Assembly (NCBI GenBank): GCA_017882335.1
Contig: JADGPR010000008.1
Coordinates: 2,268 to 66,267, forward strand
Direction: 5' to 3'
Length of the DNA stretch: 64,000 bases
Source of the DNA: Bacteroidales bacterium
GTDB taxonomy: Bacteria; Bacteroidota; Bacteroidia; Bacteroidales; FEN-979
The position numbers were made by a program, and so were the translations under genes. A model generated the notes under the pieces. It searched no databases. It worked only from the letters and a program-made list of their open reading frames with translations, and had not been told where the DNA came from. Of this stretch, positions 7,836 through 29,400 are shown in pieces (position 1 is the stretch's first letter; each line of letters starts with the position of its first letter).

Positions 7836-8681
7836 ATGCCTTCAACTACTGAACTACTGAAAATTTCCACCCAGGTCCGGCGCGATATCATCCGTATGAC
7901 ACATGGAGCCGCTTCGGGCCATCCCGGTGGCTCATTGGGGTGTGCTGACTTCCTCACCACCCTCTATTTTGGGATCATGAAGCCGGATCCCAAAAACTTT
8001 ACCATGGATGGAACAGGGGAAGACCTCTTCTTCCTTTCGAACGGGCATCTTTCACCAGTATGGTACAGCGTGTTGGGACGTTACGGCTATTTCGATTTTC
8101 ATGAGTTGGGAACCTTCCGCATGCTGAATACCCGGTTGCAGGGACATCCTTCGGTGCATGAGAAATTGCCGGGGATACGGATGGCTTCCGGATCGCTCGG
8201 ACAGGGTTTGTCGGTTTCCAACGGGGCAGCATTATCCAAGAAATTGAACCAGGATCTCCATCATGTGTTTTGCCTGATGGGTGATGGCGAATTGCAGGAA
8301 GGCCAGAACTGGGAAGCTGCGATGTTTGCCGCAGCACATAAGGTGGATAACCTGATCGCGATTGTGGATGAGAATGGAAAACAGATCGACGGGCCGGTGG
8401 AGAAAGTGATCGATATGGGCGACCTGAAGGCTAAGTTTGAAGCTTTCGGATGGCTGGTAATCAGGATGAACGGAAACGATATCGCGGATATCCGCGAAAA
8501 AATGCTCCTTGCCAGGGTAGCCAGGGGGAAAGGGAAGCCGGTCATGGTACTGATGAAGACCATCATGGGATTCGGAGTCGATTTCATGCAGGACAACCAC
8601 GAATGGCACGGTGTAGCACCGAATGATGAACAGACAGTGAAAGCCCTGGCGCAACTGGAAGAAACTTTAGGAGACTACTAA
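7836..8681 (+). CDS. Transketolase, N-terminal (TPP-binding) subunit
   Basis: SGHPGGSLG, LQGHP, GSLGQG, GDGELQEG..WEA, WHG. Confidence 0.93.
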   Translation: MPSTTELLKISTQVRRDIIRMTHGAASGHPGGSLGCADFLTTLYFGIMKPDPKNFTMDGTGEDLFFLSNGHLSPVWYSVLGRYGYFDFHELGTFRMLNTRLQGHPSVHEKLPGIRMASGSLGQGLSVSNGAALSKKLNQDLHHVFCLMGDGELQEGQNWEAAMFAAAHKVDNLIAIVDENGKQIDGPVEKVIDMGDLKAKFEAFGWLVIRMNGNDIADIREKMLLARVARGKGKPVMVLMKTIMGFGVDFMQDNHEWHGVAPNDEQTVKALAQLEETLGDY

Positions 8682-8685
8682 AAAT

Positions 8686-8734
8686 AATTACGAATTACGA
8701 ATTACGAATTATGAATTTCGCGTTACGCGTCACG
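8686..8734. repeat. Heptamer array (AATTACG)3-AATTATG followed by cgcgttacgcgtcacg
   Basis: Read directly after the stop codon; the same heptamer occurs inverted at 18364-18412. Confidence 0.85.
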
Positions 8735-8771
8735 AACTTATCAAGGTTTACAGTATCAAAATAACATCAGG

Positions 8772-10151
8772 TTGTTGAAAAAAAGTGAGTTTATATTATT
8801 GTTCCTCCTGATCATTCTTACTGGAGGATTTGGACAGGGACAAGTGGGCGAAGAAAAACCAAAGCCGCTGACCCGGATTCTTTTTGTTTTTGATGCTTCA
8901 CAAAGCATGTACGGAAGGTGGCAAAGCGATACCAAATTCAACATTGCATCCCGGCTCTTTGTCAACATCCTCGACAGCCTGAAGAATGTCAAAAACCTCG
9001 AAGTTGCATTACGGGTTTACGGACACCAGAAACAATTCCCTCCGCAGGATTGCAACGATACCAAACTGGAAGTCCCGTTTGCTCCTGATAATATCGGAAG
9101 AATAAAGCATGTGCTGAAAACGATCGTACCGAAGGGAACAACCCCGATCGCCTATTCGCTCGAACAGTCGGCGAATGATTTTCCTCCCTGTGATCATTGC
9201 CGCAACATCATCATCCTGATCACTGATGGACTGGAAGAATGTAACGGTGATCCCTGCCTGGTTTCGCATGATCTCCAGAAAAAAGGAATTATCCTGAAAC
9301 CATTTATCATCGGCATCGGCAGGGATTTCGCGGAATCCTTCGATTGCGTGGGCAGCTATTTTGATGCAACCAGTGAAAAGGAATTTACCAATGCTTTGAA
9401 CATCGTTATCTCCCGTGCACTTAACCCAACCACCGCGCAGGTCAACCTTCTCGACCAGTATGGGAAAGCAACAGAAACCAATGTCAACATGACATTTTAC
9501 GATAATGTTTCCGGAAAAGTTGAATACAATTTCATTCATTCCTTTAACAGCAAGGGATTCCCCGATACCCTCGAGATCGATCCCATGTTGACTTATGATA
9601 TCGTGGTCAATACAATTCCCCCGGTGCGGAAAGATTCCGTAAAACTGACACCCGGCAAGCATAAGATCATCGGGATCGAGACCCCGCAGGGATACCTGGC
9701 ATTCAAAACTAACGGTAATTCAACCATTAAATACCTTCCTGTACTGATCCGCAGGAAAGGAGACAGGGAAACGTTGAATGTCCAGCAGTTTGACCAGGTT
9801 GAAAAATACCTTACCGGCAGCTATGATGTAGAAGTGCTCTGCCTGCCCAGGATCCAGGTGAATAACGTGGTGATCGCGCAAAGCCATACGACGACGGTTG
9901 AGATACCGGTTCCCGGCATGGCGGTGATCCAGCGTACAACCAATGGGTATGGAAGTGTTTACATTGAGGATAAAGGCCAAATGACTTGGCTATACAACCT
10001 GAAGGACAATCTCCAGCAGCAGGAAAATCTTTTCCTTCAGCCGGGAAAGTACAGGGTGGTATTCCGGTCAAAATTTTCAAACCGCTCAGAATTTACTACA
10101 GAAAAGTCGTTTGTCGTGGAAGCCGGGCAAACGGTGAATGTTAAACTGTAA
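8772..10151 (+). CDS. Secreted von Willebrand factor A domain protein
   Basis: Signal peptide; MIDAS DASQSM, GTTPIA, LITDG; beta-rich C-terminal region. Confidence 0.85.
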   Translation: MLKKSEFILLFLLIILTGGFGQGQVGEEKPKPLTRILFVFDASQSMYGRWQSDTKFNIASRLFVNILDSLKNVKNLEVALRVYGHQKQFPPQDCNDTKLEVPFAPDNIGRIKHVLKTIVPKGTTPIAYSLEQSANDFPPCDHCRNIIILITDGLEECNGDPCLVSHDLQKKGIILKPFIIGIGRDFAESFDCVGSYFDATSEKEFTNALNIVISRALNPTTAQVNLLDQYGKATETNVNMTFYDNVSGKVEYNFIHSFNSKGFPDTLEIDPMLTYDIVVNTIPPVRKDSVKLTPGKHKIIGIETPQGYLAFKTNGNSTIKYLPVLIRRKGDRETLNVQQFDQVEKYLTGSYDVEVLCLPRIQVNNVVIAQSHTTTVEIPVPGMAVIQRTTNGYGSVYIEDKGQMTWLYNLKDNLQQQENLFLQPGKYRVVFRSKFSNRSEFTTEKSFVVEAGQTVNVKL

Positions 10152-17398: not shown

Positions 17399-18235
17399 AT
17401 GAAAAAGATTTACTTAATGGTATTGGCTATCTGCATGATGGCGGGTACTCTAAATGCCCAAAAAGCTTACATTCGCCTGGGTGTTGGCGGTGGTGTCGGA
17501 CTCAAACAATATGAGGGTACCACGTGGGCCGATGAAACCCATACGAGTACCACCGATAATTTTGTGATTAAATCTATGGGATTGGGCAGTGGTTTTAATG
17601 CAAATCTGGCTTTCGGTTTCATGCTATCAAATTATGTTGGAATTGAGCTTGGTGTAAATGAATTCATTGGGCTTGGCAACAAAATTCATAGCTCCTCAAC
17701 CACCAGCGGTTTTGATTTATCTTCGGATTCAAAACTTTCGGGGATGATGTTACAGATCGTTCCGGCTATTATTATTACTCCCGGGCTCGAAAAGGTCAAT
17801 CCTTATGCAAGGTTAGGAATGAGCGTTGGCATCCTTCCGTCGGTTGTTATGAATGACAATTCAACTACTACCGGTGGTGAGTCATTAAAAGCCACATCCA
17901 GTTCTGAAACTACAATAAAACTTTCTGGTGGTATTGCGCTTGGTTTCACCGCGGCTGGTGGGATTGATTTTAATTTGAGCGAGAGACTGACATTTTTTGG
18001 TGAATTTGTTTTCAATGGGATCACCTATGCACCGGCAAAAGGGAAATTTACGAAATGTATAATTGACGAGGTTGATAAGTTACCAACGCTGACAACCAGG
18101 GATAAAGAATGGACCTTTGAAAAGAAATATGACACCGATGAACTTATTCCGGAGGGTAGCCCAGATAAAAAACCGAAAATGTCAGTCAATTTCAGTAATG
18201 TTGAACTGAATATTGGAATAAAATTCAAATTATAA
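17399..18235 (+). CDS. Outer-membrane beta-barrel protein
   Basis: Signal peptide ending LNA-Q; alternating amphipathic strands; C-terminal IGIKFKL. Confidence 0.75.
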   Translation: MKKIYLMVLAICMMAGTLNAQKAYIRLGVGGGVGLKQYEGTTWADETHTSTTDNFVIKSMGLGSGFNANLAFGFMLSNYVGIELGVNEFIGLGNKIHSSSTTSGFDLSSDSKLSGMMLQIVPAIIITPGLEKVNPYARLGMSVGILPSVVMNDNSTTTGGESLKATSSSETTIKLSGGIALGFTAAGGIDFNLSERLTFFGEFVFNGITYAPAKGKFTKCIIDEVDKLPTLTTRDKEWTFEKKYDTDELIPEGSPDKKPKMSVNFSNVELNIGIKFKL

Positions 18236-18286
18236 GTCCACTCCAAAAAGTCGGAGCGATCAGACTAATTAATGTCCGTCTATAAT

Positions 18287-18332
18287 TCCCCCATCTTATT
18301 AATAATCGTAAGATTTTTGATGAGGTGGGGGA
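18287..18332 (+). terminator. Long hairpin with GTAA loop between the OMP gene and tRNA (terminator or stabiliser)
   Basis: CCCCCATCTTATTAATAATC-GTAA-GATTTTTGATGAGGTGGGGG; about 20 bp with G-U pairs that form on the + strand. No strong U-tract. Confidence 0.5.
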
Positions 18333-18379
18333 TATTGATACAACGAGCTGTCTCCCGACAACCCGTAATTCATAATTCG

Positions 18380-18399
18380 CCTGCCTGCCGGTAGGCAAG
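18380..18399. repeat. 20-bp palindrome variant CCTGCCTGCCGGTAGGCAAG inside a CGTAATT heptamer array
   Basis: Two mismatches to CCTGCCTGCCGGCAGGCAGG; removing it restores cgtaatt-cataatt-cgtaatt-cgtaatt. Confidence 0.85.
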
Positions 18400-18419
18400 T
18401 AATTCGTAATTAATTTTCG

Positions 18420-18493
18420 TGACCCCGGCGGGATTCGAACCCACGACCCACAGCTTAGAAGGCTGTTGCTCTATCCAGCTGAGCTACGGGGCC
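18420..18493 (-). tRNA. tRNA-Arg (anticodon TCT), CCA not encoded
   Basis: GGCCCCG-TA-GCTC-AGCTGGATA-GAGC-A-ACAGC-CTTCTAA-GCTGT-GGGTC-GTGGG-TTCGAAT-CCCGC-CGGGGTC-A folds as a full cloverleaf. Confidence 0.97.
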
Positions 18494-18722
18494 AATTCTT
18501 AATAAACTCTCTTCCAATTCCACTTTTCAGATATATTTCTCTTTTCCTTTCTTCTGTTCGGGTAGAGAATGATTCAGTAAACAGTACTTTCCATGGTTTA
18601 TAGAACCGGGTGGATTTGGTTTTTCCATTATTATGTTCTTTGATCCGACGTTCCAGATCAATTGTCATACCAATATATACTCTCTTATAAGTTTCACTTT
18701 CCAAGACATAGACGATGTACAT
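18471..18722 (-). CDS. Small stand-alone GIY-YIG nuclease (UPF0213-like); 3' end runs into the tRNA
   Basis: YIVYVL..YIGMT..LERRIKEHN..REIYLKSG; last codons (WPRSSAG*) are tRNA sequence and the stop TAG is in the D-loop. Confidence 0.9.
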   Translation of the reverse strand: MYIVYVLESETYKRVYIGMTIDLERRIKEHNNGKTKSTRFYKPWKVLFTESFSTRTEERKREIYLKSGIGREFIKNWPRSSAG

Positions 18723-18731
18723 AAGCAATAA

Positions 18732-18790
18732 TTAGAAGGCTGTTGCTCCCTGCCTGCCGGCAGGCAGGGATCCAGCTGAGCTACGAGGCC
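18732..18790 (-). pseudogene. Duplicated 5' half of tRNA-Arg with a palindrome inserted in the D-loop
   Basis: GGCCTCGTAGCTCAGCTGGAT-[CCCTGCCTGCCGGCAGGCAGG]-GAGCAACAGCCTTCTAA; identity ends exactly at the end of the anticodon loop. Confidence 0.9.
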
Positions 18791-18802
18791 TGATCTGGGC
18801 TG

Positions 18803-18810
18803 CAAAATTA
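18803..18810 (-). promoter_or_regulatory. -7 promoter element driving tRNA half / GIY-YIG / tRNA
   Basis: TAATTTTG about 12 nt upstream of the tRNA fragment's first G. Confidence 0.65.
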
Positions 18811-18988
18811 GAAAAATTTAAGTTACTAACAAGGATAGCTGCTATTGCTGAAAATTCTAATTTTGTAACAAGGAATGAAAAAGGTACCCTGCAATGCCGG
18901 AATAAGCAACAGCTTATCTACTGCTGACTGTGAATTTAAGTAAGTTTAATATTTATCGAATGCGTTTACCTTTTAAATCTTTATTGAC

Positions 18989-19531
18989 ATGAGAATCTTG
19001 AAAGACAGGTCCGCTGCGTTGATCATCGATATGCAGGAACGGTTGTATCCGTTCATTTTTGAAAATGAAATGCTCACAAAAAATGTATCGAAACTTATTG
19101 AGGGCCTGAAAATAATCGGGGTTCCTATTTTTATCACGGAACAATATGTGAAAGGGCTGGGACCAACCATCGAACCGGTTGCAACGCTTCTTGGAAGCCA
19201 TCCCCGCATTGAGAAAATGTCATTCAGCTGCTGCGACGAACCCCGCGTAATGGAAGGGATTGCCGTTACCGGAAAGGAAAACATCATCATCGCCGGCATT
19301 GAAAGCCATGTTTGCGTATTGCAAACCGTTATCGACCTCAAACGCAACGGATATCATCCCGTTATAGTGGAAGATTGTGTTTCTTCCCGCCATGAAAATG
19401 ACAAGAGGATGGCCATTGAACGGATGCGTCAGGAAGGTGCAATCATAACGACCTGCGAATCCATCTTGTTTGAACTCTTACGTTATTCCGGCACAGAACA
19501 ATTCAGGGGAATATCAAGACTTGTGAAATAA
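18989..19531 (+). CDS. Isochorismatase/cysteine hydrolase family protein (YcaC-like)
   Basis: IIDMQERL, TEQY.KGLGPT, EKMSFSC, GIESHVCVLQT. Confidence 0.9.
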   Translation: MRILKDRSAALIIDMQERLYPFIFENEMLTKNVSKLIEGLKIIGVPIFITEQYVKGLGPTIEPVATLLGSHPRIEKMSFSCCDEPRVMEGIAVTGKENIIIAGIESHVCVLQTVIDLKRNGYHPVIVEDCVSSRHENDKRMAIERMRQEGAIITTCESILFELLRYSGTEQFRGISRLVK

Positions 19532-19617
19532 ATTTGTAAAGTTTGTAAAGTTCATAAAGTTTAGAAAGGTTAGACATAATTATGAAGTATTGGCATTACA
19601 CCATTTCGCCATTTTAT

Positions 19618-19704
19618 ATTGCGAGGAGCGAAGCGACGAAGCAATCTCCTGTAGTTATCACAAACAATTGTCATTGCGAGGAGCGCAGCGACGAAGCAAC
19701 CCCC
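19618..19704 (+). repeat. Two direct copies of a ~33-bp REP-like element (GTC)ATTGCGAGGAGCGMAGCGACGAAGCAAYCYC
   Basis: Copies at 19618-19648 and 19670-19703; inverted partners at 22589-22672. Confidence 0.88.
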
Positions 19705-19730
19705 AGAGTAACTTCGCTATTTGATACCTT

Positions 19731-22553
19731 ATGGTCATTGATGAAATAAACAATACGAACGGGACTGAGAACGATAATCCGGAACTGGAATCGGGAGAAT
19801 TGCGGGGAGCGATCCATTTATCAGCTATGTACAAAGACTGGTTTCTGGATTATGCTTCCTATGTGATCCTCGAACGTGCGGTTCCGGAAGTTATGGATGG
19901 ATTGAAACCGGTTCAGCGACGCATCCTCCATGCCATGAAAGAGCTGGATGATGGCCGCTACAACAAGGTGGCTAACATCATCGGTCATACCATGAAATAC
20001 CATCCGCATGGAGATGCCTCCATAGGGGATGCATTGGTTCAGCTAGGACAGAAAGATCTGCTGATCGATACGCAAGGCAACTGGGGAAATGTACTCACAG
20101 GAGACAGTGCTGCTGCTCCGCGTTATATCGAAGCGAGGTTGTCGAAATTCGCCCTCGAAGTTTTATTCAACCCGAAAACAACCATCTGGAAGTCTTCATA
20201 CGATGGAAGAAACAAGGAACCCCTGGCATTGCCGGCCAAGTTTCCTTTGCTGCTTGCCCAGGGCGGGGAGGGTATCGCTGTTGGACTTGCTTCCAAGATC
20301 CTGCCTCATAATTTCAATGAACTGATCGATGCTTGTATAAAAATACTGCAGGATAAAGAATTTGAATTGTATCCGGATTTTCTCACAGGCGGATTTGTGG
20401 ATGTGTCAAAGTACAACGACGGCCAGCGGGGCGGGAAGATCCGCTCGCGTGCCAAGATGAGTCAGCTGGATAAAAAAACGCTGGTTATCACCGAAATTCC
20501 TTTTGGTACCACCACCAACTCCATCATTGATTCGATCCTGGCTGCCAATGATAAGGGGAAGATCAAGATCAAGAAAATCGATGACAATACCTCTCAGAAT
20601 GTTGAGATCCTGATCCAACTTGTCCCAGGAGTTTCACCGGATACGACCATGGATGCCCTTTATGCCTTCACCGATTGCGAGGTTTCCATTTCTCCCAATA
20701 CCTGTGTTATCGCGAACGGAAAACCAAGCTTCATGGGCGTCAGCGAGATCCTGCGGATCTCCACTGCATCGACCCTTGACTTGTTACGAAGAGAACTGGA
20801 GATCCGGAGGGATGAACTGAAAGAACAACTGCATTTTGCATCGCTCGAGAAGATCTTCATCGAAAAAGAGATCTACGAAGGGATCAAGAAATGCAAGACT
20901 GGCGAGGAGATCGACAAAGCCATCATCAGAGGATTTAAACCCTACCTCGACCTCCTGATCCGTCCGATCAACGAAGATGACCTGCATCGCTTGCGGAAGA
21001 TCCCCATCGAACGCATTTCGAAATTCAATTCCGATAAAGCCGACGAAAGTATCCGTGACATCGGTATCAACATAGAAGAAGTTGAAAATCATCTCGCCCA
21101 CCTTATCGATTATGCCATAGAATATTTCCGGCAAATCAAAAAGAAATATGGAAAAGGAAGAGACCGGAAGTCGGAGATCCGGAATTTCGATACCATTGAA
21201 GCCGTAAAGGTTGCGGCCGCCACCCAGCGGCTCTATGTAAACCGGGAAGAAGGATTTGCCGGTACATCGCTGCGGAAGGACGAATTTGTGACCGAATGTT
21301 CCGACATCGATGATATCATCGTCTTCCGCCAGAACGGAACTTTTGTGGTTACGAAAGTCATCGACAAAGTCTTTGTAGGGCAGGAGATCATCCACATTGC
21401 TGTCTTCAATAAAAATGATGAACGAACCGTTTACAACCTGATCTACCGTGATGGAAAGAATGGCAAGGTCAGGGTAAAGAGGTTCAATGTGATGGGCGTT
21501 ACCCGAGACAAGGAATATTTTATCACCAAAGGAACGCCCGAATCAAGAGTCCTTTATTTTACGGCGAATCCGAATGGTGAAGCAGAGATTGTCAGGGTTG
21601 AACTGCGCCCGAAACCGAGGCTGAAAAAATTGAATTTCGATTTTGATTTCACAACGGTTTCGATCAAAGGGCGGGGCTCTATGGGGAACATCCTGACCCG
21701 GTATGGCGTCAGAAAAATCGAACAACGCCAGGAAGGTGTTTCAACACTGGGCTCACGGTTGATCTGGTACGATGATACCGTCAAACGGCTCAATACCGAA
21801 GAACGGGGAATCATCCTGGGCGACTTCTCCGGGCCCGACCGGATCATCACTATCATGCAATCCGGTCATTACCGGCTCACTTCATATGATCTCAGTACTC
21901 ATTTCGATGAAGATATGATCCTCATTGAAAAATATAATCCTGAAAAAATATTCACTGCCATTTATGAAGATACGAAAACGAAATCGTTTTACGTTAAAAG
22001 GTTTATCATTGAAGTAACGGAACGGAAGATGGATTTTATCGGGGAAGAAGAGAAAAACAAGATTGTGTTGCTGACCGGCGATAAATATCCGAGGCTTGAC
22101 ATTGCTTTTGACATGAAGCTGAAGACCAAAGGTGCTGAGAAGGAAGTGATCACAGTACATGAATTCATCGGCGTTAAAGGCTTCAAGGCGAAGGGGAAAA
22201 GGATTTCTCTCCATGCTGTGAAGAAAATTGAATTCCTGGATCCTCTTCAGGTTGATGAACCTCTTCCCGACGTGCATGTTGAAGATGGAGGACAGAAAAC
22301 GGAGGTCAGAGGTCGGAAGACTGAGGATCAAGAATCGAGGATAGAGAATGGAGATCGGAAAACAGAGGTTAGGAGGCAGAAGGTTGATACTGGAGAAAAG
22401 AAAATAAAAAATGAAAAATTAAAAGTGAAAGACGATTTTCGGAAAGCGAAAAGCGAACAGCGAGGAACGAAAAGCCAAAAGCGAAAAGCGAAGGGTGAGG
22501 ATAAAAAAGAGGAGGATACGGGAGGTACAGTGCAGATGGAGCTTCCACTCTAG
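19731..22553 (+). CDS. parC: DNA topoisomerase IV subunit A (Bacteroidetes type) with a low-complexity C-terminal tail
   Basis: DGLKPVQRR, YHPHGDASIGDAL, GNWGN..TGD, AAPRYIEARL (catalytic Tyr); no GyrA box seen. Confidence 0.88.
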   Translation: MVIDEINNTNGTENDNPELESGELRGAIHLSAMYKDWFLDYASYVILERAVPEVMDGLKPVQRRILHAMKELDDGRYNKVANIIGHTMKYHPHGDASIGDALVQLGQKDLLIDTQGNWGNVLTGDSAAAPRYIEARLSKFALEVLFNPKTTIWKSSYDGRNKEPLALPAKFPLLLAQGGEGIAVGLASKILPHNFNELIDACIKILQDKEFELYPDFLTGGFVDVSKYNDGQRGGKIRSRAKMSQLDKKTLVITEIPFGTTTNSIIDSILAANDKGKIKIKKIDDNTSQNVEILIQLVPGVSPDTTMDALYAFTDCEVSISPNTCVIANGKPSFMGVSEILRISTASTLDLLRRELEIRRDELKEQLHFASLEKIFIEKEIYEGIKKCKTGEEIDKAIIRGFKPYLDLLIRPINEDDLHRLRKIPIERISKFNSDKADESIRDIGINIEEVENHLAHLIDYAIEYFRQIKKKYGKGRDRKSEIRNFDTIEAVKVAAATQRLYVNREEGFAGTSLRKDEFVTECSDIDDIIVFRQNGTFVVTKVIDKVFVGQEIIHIAVFNKNDERTVYNLIYRDGKNGKVRVKRFNVMGVTRDKEYFITKGTPESRVLYFTANPNGEAEIVRVELRPKPRLKKLNFDFDFTTVSIKGRGSMGNILTRYGVRKIEQRQEGVSTLGSRLIWYDDTVKRLNTEERGIILGDFSGPDRIITIMQSGHYRLTSYDLSTHFDEDMILIEKYNPEKIFTAIYEDTKTKSFYVKRFIIEVTERKMDFIGEEEKNKIVLLTGDKYPRLDIAFDMKLKTKGAEKEVITVHEFIGVKGFKAKGKRISLHAVKKIEFLDPLQVDEPLPDVHVEDGGQKTEVRGRKTEDQESRIENGDRKTEVRRQKVDTGEKKIKNEKLKVKDDFRKAKSEQRGTKSQKRKAKGEDKKEEDTGGTVQMELPL

Positions 22554-26499: not shown

Positions 26500-29400
26500 T
26501 TGGATGAGCTGTTCACGGATTCGAAATACAAAATTACCATAAAAAGGGTCACAAAAATATTGATTTATATCCTGGTGGTGCTGATCTCCTTTATTACCAC
26601 CAGCTATCTCGTTTTACGGGATCCCTGGGTACAAACCCTGTCGGCAAGGATCGCTTCGCATTACCTGTCGGTTCATCTTCATACGGAAATCAGGATCGGG
26701 GGATTTGATCTTTCCTTCGGGCGTGGACTTACCATGGAGGACATTGTTATCCGCGACCAGCATCAGGTGGAACTCTTCTCCGCCCATAAACTCAGCATTA
26801 TCCCCGGAAAATTCAGCCTGTCAAAAAAGATCCTCAATTTCAGAAAGGTATTTATCGACAAAGGACTGATCCAGCTCCTGACACACAAAGGCGACACCGT
26901 TCTAAACCTTCAGTTTATCATTGACTATTTTACTCCAAAGGCTACATTGAAACCGCCGGATACCATCGGCCCCAAATGGCATCTCTCCATAACGGCGCTT
27001 CAGCTTTCGTCAACCCGGTTTCATCTCCAGGATGAGAATAAACCGCTGGTAACGTTGGGGATGGACTATTCAAATATTGATGTTCGGAACATTAACTTCC
27101 TGATCACCGGTTTCCATCCGGATGGTGATACACTGATTGCCAGGATCGAACGGCTTTCGGCTACCGAACGCTCGGGTTTTTCGGTTCATTCCATGAGCGG
27201 TGATTTCCAGGTCAGTCCTGCTTTCCTGAAGGCGCATAACTTGAAGCTTGTGACCAATCACAGTGAACTCGACCTGACATTTGACTTTTTATATGACCGG
27301 TGGAATGATTACACCGATTTCCTGAACAAAGTACGCATCCGGGCATCTATAAATCCGTCTTATCTGGATCTCCAGGACATCGGGGCATTTGCTCCGGTAA
27401 TGTATGTGATGAAAGACCGGTTTAAGATGGAAGGAAAGATAAAAGGAACAGTCAGCAATTTCAATGCAAAAGATTTCCGGTGCGCCTACGGAACCGAAAC
27501 AAGGTTCTGGGGAAATATCCATGCATATGGCCTCCCAAATGTGGAAGAAACCTTCGTGGATCTCAACATAAAGGATTTTGTAACCAACAAGGAGGATATT
27601 CACTCCCTGAATCTTCCTATCGCCGATAAAAACCTGGATCTTCCGGCTTTTCTGAAGAATGCAGGAACATATAACCTGAAAGGAAATTTCACCGGTTTCT
27701 ATAACGATTTTGTGGCAAATGCAAGGCTTCGTACGGATATCGGCGATCTGAAAACGGATCTTACCCTTCGAAAACACAAGGGAGTAAAAGGACTGTTCTA
27801 CACCGGCGAAGCGGATATTACCAGTCTGCAGCTCGGTAAACTTTTTAAATCAAATGAATTGCTTGGACCCATATCACTCCGGGCTGATCTGAATGGCAGT
27901 GGCTTCACACTCGAGGATGCTATTGTGACGATGAATGTATGGATTGATTCTGTCAGTCTGAATAAATATACATATCGCCACATTACCATACAAGGAGGGT
28001 TGGAGGATAAGAAATTTAACGGCAGGATGAATGTGGATGATCATAACCTCAGGCTCGATTTCAACGGACTTGTGGATATGGGCGATTCCCTGCCGGCCTT
28101 CAATTTTGATTTGATGTTGAATCATGCCCAACTGTTTGCAATGAACCTGGTGAAACGGGATTCGCTGGAAGATCTTTCGGCCCATGTCAAGGTGGATTTT
28201 ACCGGAAACAATATTGACAACATTGAAGGAACAATCCATATCGATAGCACACGGTACTGTGAAGGACATGATACGATCCGTATGAATCATCTTTCGCTTC
28301 TGACCTCTAGGGATGCAAAAAACAACAAATCCTACCATCTTCTTTCGGATTTTGTGGATGCCGATATTTCGGGAAACTTCTACTTCAGCGACATGATCCC
28401 CTCACTTACTTCCTTCATCACAAATTACATAGCTTCCTTTGAACTTAATGATTCACTCATCGACCACCATCCTTCCACTAACCAGCAGATCAATTATGTT
28501 GTCAAACTGAAGAAAACGGACCCCATTATGAAAGTCTTCGTCCCTTTTCTGAGGATGGCTCCCAATACCAACTTCGAAGGATATTACAATGAAAACGAAG
28601 GGATGATCGCCTTGACTGGATCTTCACCGGACATTTCCCTTTTTGGAAAACACTTTGCAGGTTGGTTTATCAAGGCTACAAGCCGGCAGGAGAATCTCAA
28701 CATCCAGACGGGTTGTAGCAGGTTTTATATATTCAGGGGAGAGAAACTGGATTCTGCACTGATCATGATGGATTCGTTACACCTGGTCTCAAACCTGCAT
28801 CACGACAGCATCTTTTATGACATTTCCTGGAATATGGAAAAAATACAAAGTGACCTGGGCGGATTTGTCAACCTCAAGAACAGTCCTGTTATCCAGGTCA
28901 AACTGACGCGTTTCCACACTTATATTGATCACCACTACTGGACAGTTGCGAAGGAGAATGAAGTGATCATCGACAGTTCTACGATACTGTTTCGTGATGT
29001 TGCTTTTGAGTCGGGTGAACAAAAACTGCAAGTCGACGGAAAGATCTCCAGCCTCCCGGAAGATACTTTGCGGTTGAATTTCAATAAGGTGGATATTTCC
29101 GATCTTGACTATTTCCTGGCAAATCCGCAGATCAATGTCGACGGCATCTTGAGTGGCAGCCTGAAACTGATGAATATACCACATTCCCTTACTGTCCTCT
29201 CGGATCTCAGTATCGATAGCCTCGCTTTCAATAAGGAACAATTGGGTGATGCAAAGTTCAACGTGTTTTATGACGACAAGGCGGAACGGTTTGATGTGGA
29301 TTCCCGGATCTATTATACAGGGAATGCCGGAACCAACATTCCCCTTTCGCTGAAAGGAAGTTATTACCTCGGTAAGCCGGAACCTCATATGAATTTTAAC

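Follow-up and report, generated by a model that had tools for sequence, protein, structure and literature searches.

The Seg proteins of T4-like phages are nucleases of about 200 amino acids (aa), encoded in phage genomes, in which a GIY-YIG domain is combined with a DNA-binding domain. They stand alone among transfer RNA (tRNA) genes, outside introns and inteins, and SegB is encoded in the T4 tRNA cluster. Seg proteins are reported to spread by nuclease-induced repair that co-converts the flanking DNA (PMC2330249). Here we describe a cassette of about 0.3 kb in which a small GIY-YIG open reading frame (ORF) is nested between a hairpin-interrupted partial copy of tRNA-Arg(TCT) and the intact tRNA gene. 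It lies in a 64,000-nucleotide (nt) stretch of DNA from a Bacteroidales bacterium of the lineage FEN-979 (GenBank assembly GCA_017882335.1, contig JADGPR010000008.1, positions 2,268 to 66,267 of the forward strand), the whole of which is called the window below. With a GIY-YIG domain, a stand-alone gene and a position beside tRNA genes in common, free-standing GIY-YIG homing genes such as SegB are the closest functional analogue of the cassette. Unlike the Seg proteins, the cassette protein consists of a 76-aa core, is encoded in bacterial chromosomes and always comes with a conserved hairpin and a duplicate of part of the tRNA.

The closest relatives by sequence are the UPF0213 proteins (YhbQ of E. 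coli and YazA of B. subtilis), which have the same minimal stand-alone domain. To our knowledge YhbQ is not encoded adjacent to a tRNA gene, and full-text literature searches returned no report that places UPF0213 genes inside tRNA genes or links the proteins to a palindrome. A minimal stand-alone Slx1-like GIY-YIG branch in prokaryotes is described in two papers (PMC1564403, PMC7017083).

In genomic logic, the cassette is closest to the tyrosine-integrase islands and prophages that target tRNA genes. These duplicate part of the tRNA gene and, like the cassette, keep the tRNA functional through the duplicated part and leave a partial direct repeat behind; unlike them, the cassette has no integrase, measures 0.3 kb instead of kilobases, duplicates the 5' part of the tRNA in one of its two layouts (type A, see below) and carries a spare copy marked by a hairpin. 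The pairing of a nuclease with a palindrome is closest to that of the REP/RAYT systems, in which a small nuclease gene of the Y1 HUH type accompanies a short conserved palindrome of which a genome may contain tens of scattered copies. The cassette differs in its GIY-YIG enzyme and in the nesting of the gene in a tRNA gene, and covalent strand transfer would not be expected because the enzyme is a GIY-YIG and not an HUH nuclease. Group I intron homing genes in bacterial tRNA genes likewise invade a tRNA whose function is kept, but the cassette lacks a ribozyme (Rfam, 21 loci) and function is preserved by duplication and not by splicing. Finally, the GC-rich palindromes of Neurospora mitochondria and the mobile GC clusters of fungal mitochondria are short conserved palindromes found in association with tRNA genes, and the genomes concerned have many GIY-YIG homing genes; in contrast to the hairpin of the cassette, these palindromes are organellar, lie outside a spare tRNA copy and are not tied to a particular small ORF. 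No description of small tRNA-nested GIY-YIG cassettes or of the 20-mer reported below was found in the full-text literature, subscription journals and supplementary files aside, and we rate the cassette as a free-standing selfish nuclease gene of unprecedented architecture.

The reading that we favor, with a probability of about 0.65, is that the locus belongs to a large, horizontally spreading family of integrase-free and intron-free selfish cassettes of about 0.3 kb, each combining a Slx1/UPF0213-type nuclease with a hairpin-interrupted tRNA fragment and nested by homology-guided recombination such that one tRNA is kept intact.

Architecture of the tRNA-Arg(TCT) locus

The cassette lies on the minus strand, where a promoter box, a partial copy of tRNA-Arg(TCT), a short linker, a GIY-YIG ORF (P0001) and the complete tRNA gene follow one another (Table 1), each where it had been placed by the first-pass annotation, which was made from the letters of the window alone. 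The whole partial copy spans 18790-18732. Its positions 1-21 comprise the acceptor 5' strand, the 5' strand of the D-stem and the D-loop, its positions 23-39 cover the D-stem 3' strand and everything up to and including the anticodon loop, and the palindrome between them contains the core 20-mer that forms the hairpin conserved across phyla. Measured start to start, the two repeat halves are 297 and 277 nt away from their counterparts in the intact tRNA, which leaves a net insert of 20 nt in the upstream copy. As first described, P0001 has no stop codon of its own: residues 1-76 form the catalytic core, and the final seven residues and the TAG come from tRNA positions 1-23, so that the ORF ends at the D-loop TAG of the intact tRNA.

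Table 1. Features of the cassette locus in the window.
Feature	Position	Strand	Basis or remark
TAATTTTG box	18803..18810	minus	Likely -7 element of the tRNA promoter
tRNA-Arg(TCT) partial copy, linear positions 1-21, reading GGCCTCGTAGCTCAGCTGGAT	18770..18790	minus	Direct repeat D2 with 18473-18493, 95% identity (1 mismatch in 21)
Perfect 22-nt palindrome CCCTGCCTGCCGGCAGGCAGGG at the D-loop 3' edge of the partial copy	18748..18769	minus	Sequence; same tRNA position elsewhere
tRNA-Arg(TCT) partial copy, linear positions 23-39, reading GAGCAACAGCCTTCTAA	18732..18748	minus	Direct repeat D4 with 18455-18471, 17/17 identical
9-nt linker from partial tRNA copy to ATG	18723..18731	minus	Sequence
GIY-YIG ORF P0001, 83 aa	18471..18722	minus	ATG at 18722, stop TAG 18473-18471; Pfam PF01541, E=6.9e-16
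Intact tRNA-Arg(TCT)	18419..18493	minus	ARAGORN; Rfam RF00005, 69.2 bits
Second palindrome, one mismatch, amid AATTCGT-type simple repeats	18380..18399	minus	Member of a dispersed family, flanks alike at C26, C79, C6 and C59

The tRNA-Arg(TCT) gene is the single tRNA that ARAGORN finds in the whole window and the only copy found in the source genome (G000; below, G, C and L numbers denote genomes, contigs and fetched loci). We take TAnnTTTG to be the Bacteroidota -7 consensus, hence the assignment of the TAATTTTG box, and this tRNA promoter box now likely drives the half-copy, the ORF and the tRNA together. No integrase was found among the ORFs of at least 40 aa between 17000 and 20500, and the 297-bp segment bounded by the repeats contains the GIY-YIG ORF alone, with neither the tyrosine nor the serine integrase of a tRNA island. 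An E-value scan of 17500-19800 against Rfam returned tRNA and no other family, and the downstream tRNA is uninterrupted. The earlier denial that the locus is an integrase island or a group I intron was thus borne out.

The palindrome pattern occurs twice in the window and in none of 100 shuffles. The first occurrence is indeed present at the D-loop TAG of the half-copy, as had been noted, but it is not an incidental interruption: the same 20-mer is found across phyla, and the palindrome is an integral and conserved feature of the cassette. The second, which begins 20 nt beyond the intact tRNA, had also been correctly located, but its inclusion in the cassette did not hold. It belongs to a dispersed family, no palindrome lies past the tRNA in the related genomes G010 and G033, and it probably stands outside the cassette.

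P0001 matches Pfam PF01541 over residues 1-67 with 58.8 bits against a cut-off of 22.6 (57.9 bits in a scan of the whole genome). In an alignment of 70 relatives, Y5, Y16, R26, H30, P43, E62 and K66 are invariant, with at least 90% conservation at G18 and N31; to Y5, Y16, R26, H30 and E62 we assign, presumably, the roles of the GIY tyrosine, the YIG tyrosine, the catalytic arginine, the His/Asn residue and the metal-binding glutamate. A profile search of the PDB returned the UPF0213 proteins BH0048 (1zg2, E=2e-14) and EF2693 (1ywl, E=9.1e-13), followed by SLX1 chains with E-values of 7e-8 to 6e-6. By these similarities P0001 is a member of the minimal stand-alone Slx1/UPF0213-like GIY-YIG branch, and its length leaves no space for a DNA-binding domain. 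No other small GIY-YIG gene was detected in the source genome, where tblastn gave one match; the Pfam scan returned, besides P0001, one more GIY-YIG match in an open frame of 622 aa, which is taken to be UvrC-like.

Recurrence of the cassette within the order and across phyla

When 401 genomes of this order were searched in all six frames (E<=1e-5), relatives of the ORF were identified in 162 genomes and in 112 of 236 genera, often in tandem arrays. The distribution is patchy, with a match in 27 of 90 genomes of the family. The 80 best loci, together with the window locus and G033:C217, gave an order sample of 82 loci with 109 ORF hits, in 72 of which an intact tRNA lies directly beside the ORF or array on the same strand. 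Two layouts were distinguished. In type A (29 loci), the ORF precedes the tRNA, which is mostly tRNA-Arg with all five anticodons and also Glu and Ser; in type B (41 loci), the tRNA and its terminator precede the ORF, and the tRNA is Met, Leu, Asn, Val, Pro, Gly or Arg. Two loci have both layouts. The ten with neither are contig ends or masked stretches, most of them with tRNA fragments. The mirror-image form, in which an intact tRNA and terminator are followed by the ORF and a hairpin-bearing 3' partial copy, was absent from the first-pass annotation.

The alignment of 70 ORFs was too diverse for a scan across phyla, which was therefore run with a 10-sequence alignment of close relatives and one genome per species. 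It yielded at least 521 confirmed relatives, of which the best 80 loci were analyzed. An adjacent intact tRNA was present in 75 of these (60 type A, 12 type B, 3 both). By record title they cover all major Bacteroidota orders as well as Omnitrophota, Pseudomonadota, Nitrospirota, Ignavibacteriota, Margulisiibacteriota and, among the Patescibacteria, Saccharimonadota, Roizmanii-, Falkowii-, Magasanikii- and Woykeibacteriota and Minisyncoccota. Culturable carriers among them include strains of Algoriphagus, Niabella, Zunongwangia and Mangrovibacterium. Three of them are on the same contigs as loci of the order sample, leaving 159 distinct loci in the union, 144 with an intact adjacent tRNA on the same strand. 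About 0.5 such loci (~0.3% per locus) would be expected by chance, a rough estimate for a genome of 3.1 Mb with 41 tRNAs, each of which offers ~460 qualifying positions on a single strand.

The region 5' of the ATG in most type A loci contains a 5' partial copy of the same tRNA, usually with no or one mismatch in the first 18 nt, and this copy is usually interrupted by a GC-rich hairpin. In type B loci, the 3' part of the tRNA and the spacer or terminator are repeated after the ORF, with the hairpin in the T-loop or anticodon arm or replacing it; at some of these loci a full hairpin-bearing tRNA copy stands in place of the 3' part. Tandem units were found in both layouts, namely two type A units before tRNA-Arg(ACG) in G033 and, as the largest array, eight type B units in G053. 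The same architecture is present in complete genomes such as the Niabella insulamsoli chromosome (L175). Rfam scans of 20 other cassette loci at the gathering threshold returned tRNA only.

Most type A ORFs either stop only a few bases from tRNA position 1 or run into the tRNA, and the stop codon is inside the tRNA in 52 of 86 distinct type A loci (18 of 29 plus 34 of 57). Since most such loci leave no room for a separate tRNA promoter, ORF and tRNA are expected to be co-transcribed. For the same 52 loci it is geometrically valid that maturation of the tRNA by RNase P would cut the nuclease mRNA before its stop codon, as had been proposed for the window locus. Between related cassettes of different genomes, similarity covers the whole stretch bounded by the partial copy and the intact tRNA, both included, an observation that fits every model considered here.

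The conserved hairpin

Of the 80 loci of the cross-phylum scan, 36 have the exact 20-mer CCTGCCTGCCGGCAGGCAGG no more than 200-260 nt away from the ORF, and 51 have it with up to two mismatches. In the more diverse order sample the corresponding counts were 12 and 18 of 82, and other clades bear other hairpins. Exact copies occur under at least eight phylum labels, including Bacteroidota, Omnitrophota, Saccharimonadota and other Patescibacteria, and Pseudomonadota. The GC hairpins of the other clades include TCCGCCGCGGCGGA, TCCGCCAGCTGGCGGA, CCTGTCTACCGACAGGTAGA and long forms of the type CCCGCCCGAC...GTCGGGCGGG, as well as some hairpins with TTCG loops. In one ORF clade, the cassettes at tRNA-Asn and tRNA-Val(TAC) have both the hairpin and its position in the T-loop in common.

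A survey of 90 type A loci (87 distinct) revealed a clear GC-hairpin insert in 62, in which 63 inserts were scored; the remaining 28 have imperfect hairpins or alignments that were broken up by the cheap-gap method. Thirty-six inserts are located at the junction of the D-loop with the 3' strand of the D-stem, 15 inside the D-loop and 6, all in tRNA-Leu, at most 2 nt from that junction, while 4 lie in or at the anticodon loop and 2 elsewhere. Ten variant hairpins were examined for strand asymmetry, which would indicate selection at the RNA level, and contained G·T and A·C mispairs in 6 and 4 cases, respectively.

Some partial copies hold more than one hairpin. Two different types stand side by side in one D-loop of an Omnitrophota metagenome-assembled genome (MAG; L127), hairpins are inserted in the center of other hairpins in L159 and L173, and the same hairpin is found in two loops of one partial copy in L084 and L097. 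It is as if the single-stranded loops of any hairpin were preferred insertion points.

The palindrome was also detected away from the cassettes. It is present in 27 of 90 family genomes, with a reversed-pattern control that gave 0 everywhere, and copy numbers in the family range from 0 to 56, with 41 in the source genome (at most one mismatch), 56 in G008 and 31 in G001. Further counts were 27 in G033, 26 in G283 and 2-3 each in G065, G225, G358 and G394. The only genomic copy in G418 and in G047 is that of the cassette, and three of the four copies in G436 lie beside GIY-YIG ORFs. In the source genome, where the palindrome reads CCTGCCTGCCGG(C/T)AGGCAGG, 40 sites were listed with their flanks, most of them in the middle of runs of CGCAGAT-like or AATTCGT-like repeats.

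Allelic forms of the locus and derived cassettes

The state of the same locus was determined by a DNA search of 40 relatives, after which the loci were read. Empty sites, in which the conserved promoter block TTAAATTTTTCTAATTTTGCAG is joined straight to the intact tRNA, were read in G009, G005 and G012 and judged by coordinates in G003, G006, G013 and G015; these empty alleles are fully functional tRNA loci. Short tandem repeats were seen between promoter block and tRNA in G005 and G009. Units of 7-8 nt (CACTTGG, CTGCTGA, GGTGAAC, TTGCACn) separate the promoter from tRNA-Arg(TCT) in L004, L006 and L007 (G009, G008 and G005, respectively), and comparable tandem repeats flank dispersed palindromes of other genomes (L106, L113, L116).

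Other relatives display intermediate forms. G010, of the same genus, has no ORF, and its promoter is followed by the half-copy, the 20-nt palindrome at the same D-loop position, six bases and the intact tRNA, while the closest relative, G001, retains a degenerate remnant of half-copy and palindrome after the promoter. In G008 an intact tRNA without cassette is preceded by ~600 nt of other DNA. G011 has no cassette either (L005:1-1560, C16, minus strand): its tRNA-Arg(TCT) is cut at position 60, in the T-loop, and is followed by a tyrosine-integrase-like gene that is apparently broken; no second tRNA-Arg(TCT) was found in this 90%-complete assembly. No close homologue of the ORF was identified in the same genus, where the best match is 41% identical, and the closest relative in the family, with 67% identity, belongs to another genus (G436). 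The cassette therefore varies by presence and absence at a defined site among close relatives, in the manner of a homing endonuclease gene.

The window locus was further compared with Logan contigs, all of them DNA contigs, from a probable source run (X1) and from three other studies (X2, X3, X4). X2 covers 18496-18773 with one difference, X3 covers 18472-18670, X4 covers 18624-18785, and the source-run contig spans 18435-19050. A second contig of X2, in which 18489 is joined to 18787, differs at about 10 positions per 100 and represents a related organism whose allele is empty. An ORF-less joint of 18494 to 18732 with 40 other letters was seen in X1 and is a weak hint, consisting of one contig with a 23-nt side.

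Solo forms, in which a hairpin-bearing partial copy without ORF lies beside an intact tRNA, were found in G010 (Arg-TCT), G008:C23 (Arg-ACG) and the source genome. The last of these, outside the window at G000:C96:26642-26830, is of type B and comprises tRNA-Gly(CCC) at 26642-26715, a terminator and a partial copy that starts at about position 7 and has the hairpin TCCCGAGTACTCGGGA in place of ten of its bases, followed by a second terminator. In G149 (L021), G436 and L175, a hairpin is located in the D-loop of a full-length tRNA that follows the ORF. The sole assembled match to tRNA-Arg(TCT) in G436 carries the 20-nt hairpin in this way (L107, L108; C48:1-800, 7900-8800), no intact tRNA-Arg(TCT) was found elsewhere in this 99%-complete assembly, and the same ORF tail with hairpin-bearing tRNA appears both at the end of C48 and internally, which suggests either a repeat-induced misassembly at the palindrome or a tolerated hairpin-bearing tRNA.

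Phylogeny and horizontal spread of the ORF

A tree was calculated from 157 ORFs, one per locus, over 76 alignment columns with the quick search of IQ-TREE, and the changes of three labels along it were compared with 300 shuffles each. The amino acid of the tRNA changed 26 times (shuffles: minimum 61, mean 68), the type A/B label 18 times (minimum 34, mean 41) and the phylum label 16 times (minimum 19, mean 20). One clade of ORFs at tRNA-Leu mixes Bacteroidota, Saccharimonadota, Minisyncoccota, Omnitrophota, Nitrospirota, Pseudomonadota, Ignavibacteriota and Magasanikiibacteriota. ORF lineages thus appear to stay with one tRNA target and to move between hosts, as a site-specific mobile element would, and they follow phylum hardly at all; the horizontal spread with conserved target site seen here is drawn from a short alignment, MAG labels and kin that are not independent.

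Carriage by phages was considered and rejected, since the family is rare in viral collections, with only four IMG/VR loci, one of them beside tRNA-Arg, and nine phage records with weak matches of ~40% identity.

Discussion

The first-pass annotation had proposed a ~300-bp integrase-free element that targets tRNA genes and uses the tRNA promoter, and had named beforehand three findings that would speak against it: a cassette fixed and vertically inherited in all relatives, homologues without tRNA or palindrome association, and a duplication created by assembly. The data point the other way on all three. No same-genus genome examined has the ORF at the locus, which occurs there in empty, ORF-less and remnant forms, the association of homologues with tRNAs and hairpins is overwhelmingly present, and independent assemblies of other studies cover the ORF and each junction. 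The core of the proposal has therefore survived, and the earlier interpretation as a whole is partly supported.

On this basis we propose how such a cassette may move. The unit would consist of the ORF and the hairpin-marked tRNA fragment, and the fragment would serve as the homology arm that chooses the target, in which case a tiny nuclease could do without a sequence-specific binding domain. As a member of the structure-specific Slx1 branch with no binding domain of its own, the nuclease might cut the extruded hairpin or cruciform, or the loop-stem junctions of the tRNA gene, as its Slx1 relatives cut structures. Homologous recombination of the ends-in (Campbell) type with the resident tRNA gene would then mend the break. 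Type A would arise from a crossover on the 5' side of the hairpin, and type B, or an arrangement of an intact tRNA with a hairpin-bearing copy after it, from one on the 3' side. A crossover would be viable only if one intact tRNA remained, and for this reason the productive arm would always abut the hairpin (tRNA positions 1-21 in type A; T-arm, acceptor and terminator in type B). Tandem arrays may result from repeated events or unequal exchange, and recombination between the repeats may give rise to empty sites or hairpin-bearing full-length tRNAs. The ORF would be co-transcribed from the tRNA promoter.

If this is correct, the cassettes, at ~300 bp, are among the smallest autonomous selfish DNA elements, and they represent a third route into an essential gene without killing the host, a self-healing partial duplication marked by a hairpin, next to self-splicing introns or inteins and the att-site duplication of integrases. 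They would account for many unannotated 'GIY-YIG nuclease family' ORFs and pseudo-tRNA fragments beside tRNA genes in Bacteroidota and candidate phyla, provide a testable substrate for the poorly understood bacterial Slx1/UPF0213 family, and offer a tractable case of a chromosomal element that spreads across phyla. There are consequences for tRNA annotation, which meets hairpin-bearing tRNA-like sequences, and for MAGs, whose assemblies would break at cassette loci; a small structure-specific nuclease for which a recognition hairpin of 20 nt is defined may be a further practical outcome.

A more far-reaching version, which we put forward tentatively and hold to be rather doubtful, is that of a new class of minimal mobile elements that delegate target choice to nucleic acid. 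The 76-aa nuclease would recognize only its own invariant 20-nt hairpin and the tRNA fragment would guide integration, while the hairpin would be a detachable mini-insertion into loop-coding positions of tRNA genes or other hairpins that seeds the dispersed palindromes, and such elements would have crossed Bacteroidota, Patescibacteria, Omnitrophota and Proteobacteria. As a corollary, full-length tRNAs with a hairpin in the D-loop, as in G436, may be tolerated or repaired at the RNA level.

Several observations count against a family of mobile selfish cassettes. None of the data is direct evidence of movement. The simple logic of homing, in which insertion destroys the target, is doubtful because the intact tRNA keeps any site inside the tRNA, and type A has only ~21 nt of homology on the 5' side of the hairpin, which is short for RecA-type recombination. 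No near-identical copies at different tRNA species were seen within one genome; co-resident cassettes belong to different clades, and there is consequently no sign of recent jumps within genomes. Only 11 of 154 inner branches of the tree were starred, weak support that goes with the 76 columns. The sampled loci are the best-scoring relatives, from which more distant small GIY-YIG genes may differ, the phylum names are the MAG labels of submitters, and one 'Chlorobiota' contig (L129) is the same contig as one in a genome of the source genome's order. RNA runs match ~5% of the query words, presumably the tRNA. All 16 palindrome sites examined outside cassettes have no tRNA nearby and an ordinary or simple-repeat context, and the palindrome is found in genomes without a GIY-YIG match at E<=1e-3 (12 copies in G010, 10 in G475). 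It is present in 14 of 27 family genomes with a GIY-YIG match and in 13 of 63 without, numbers that come from kin genomes and many weak ORF matches, so that the correlation between palindrome and ORF across the 90 genomes is suggestive only.

Since all 16 outside sites lack a tRNA, the hairpin can persist or spread without the ORF, and we conclude that it travels with the cassette and can also multiply alone. In a rival explanation, the hairpin is the true mobile agent, a REP-like mini-insertion moved by another enzyme or by replication slippage that favors single-stranded loops; the spare tRNA would be its landing pad and the ORF a bystander or later passenger. The high copy numbers of the palindrome against a control of 0, the doubled and nested hairpins, the hairpin-bearing partial copies without ORF and the genomes with palindrome and no GIY-YIG match all agree with it. 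It does not account for the constant place of the ORF between two tRNA copies, and the identical 20-mer accompanies ORFs that have diverged to ~50% identity under different phylum labels, in some genomes with no or hardly any copy elsewhere (G418, G047, G436). An origin from RAYT/REP was considered and rejected: the source genome has two genes for Y1 transposases of the IS200/RAYT type (G000:C5:39950 and C85:23244), which are flanked by other repeats and not by the palindrome family, with one CCTGCC-type palindrome 325 nt from the C5 gene. The hairpin as sole agent is unlikely in our view.

We consider it just as unlikely that the cassette is a domesticated module of benefit to the host, inherited mainly vertically with frequent loss, that guards or maintains tRNA genes, for example by acting on recombination intermediates at these preferred sites of integrating elements, or whose hairpin-bearing tRNA-like leader regulates a tRNA operon. 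The ORFs are mostly intact with invariant catalytic residues, and their clades stay with one tRNA species across many families, as such a role would predict. tRNA genes are known hot spots of integration, and G011 has an integrase gene after its truncated tRNA-Arg(TCT). A 2006 survey describes a prokaryotic Slx1-like domain fused to a tRNA Gm18 methyltransferase (PMC1564403). These points contrast with a distribution that is patchy even within the genus, arrays of up to eight units, pseudogenised copies (many copies in G005 have stops), a nearest relative in another genus at 67% identity, clades that mix phylum labels and empty alleles that are fully functional.

Far less probable is the view that the partial copies are attL/attR scars of decayed integrase islands, or of a lost group I intron, with the ORF as leftover cargo. 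The layout of type B, which opens with an intact tRNA and closes with a 3' partial copy, is that of an island that duplicates part of its tRNA, and a true integrase stands beside tRNA-Arg(TCT) in G011. Against this, the unit in the window contains no integrase, is only ~300 bp long and is repeated in tandem at other loci, the tRNA part duplicated in type A is the 5' one, 144 of 159 loci show the same ORF family and hairpin, and Rfam detects no intron or other family in the 21 loci scanned. The chance that the duplication is an assembly artefact is negligible, because contigs of three other studies and the source run cover the ORF and its junctions and the architecture is present in complete genomes (L175), even though the source genome is a MAG of 123 contigs and palindromes can confuse assemblers, as G436:C48 illustrates.

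Further observations

The neighbors of the cassette encode an outer-membrane beta-barrel protein and an isochorismatase. Elsewhere in the source genome, ARAGORN reported a 97-nt 'tRNA-Asn(att)' on C91, which was discarded as a false positive in a coding region. The two Y1 transposase genes, outside the window at C5:39860-40640 and C85:23244-23880, are each bordered by distinct repeats: one lies between REP-like GTGGGCGGAGTCCACGG / CAGCCCCGAAGGGG units, and the other has four tandem units of ~50 nt ending in CACCCCTGCGGGGTT. Within the window, overlapping short ORFs on both strands of 19582-19834, just 5' of a topoisomerase-like gene of 940 aa, encode CHCEERSDEA-like peptides; this segment looks like a GC-rich intergenic repeat and not like genes.

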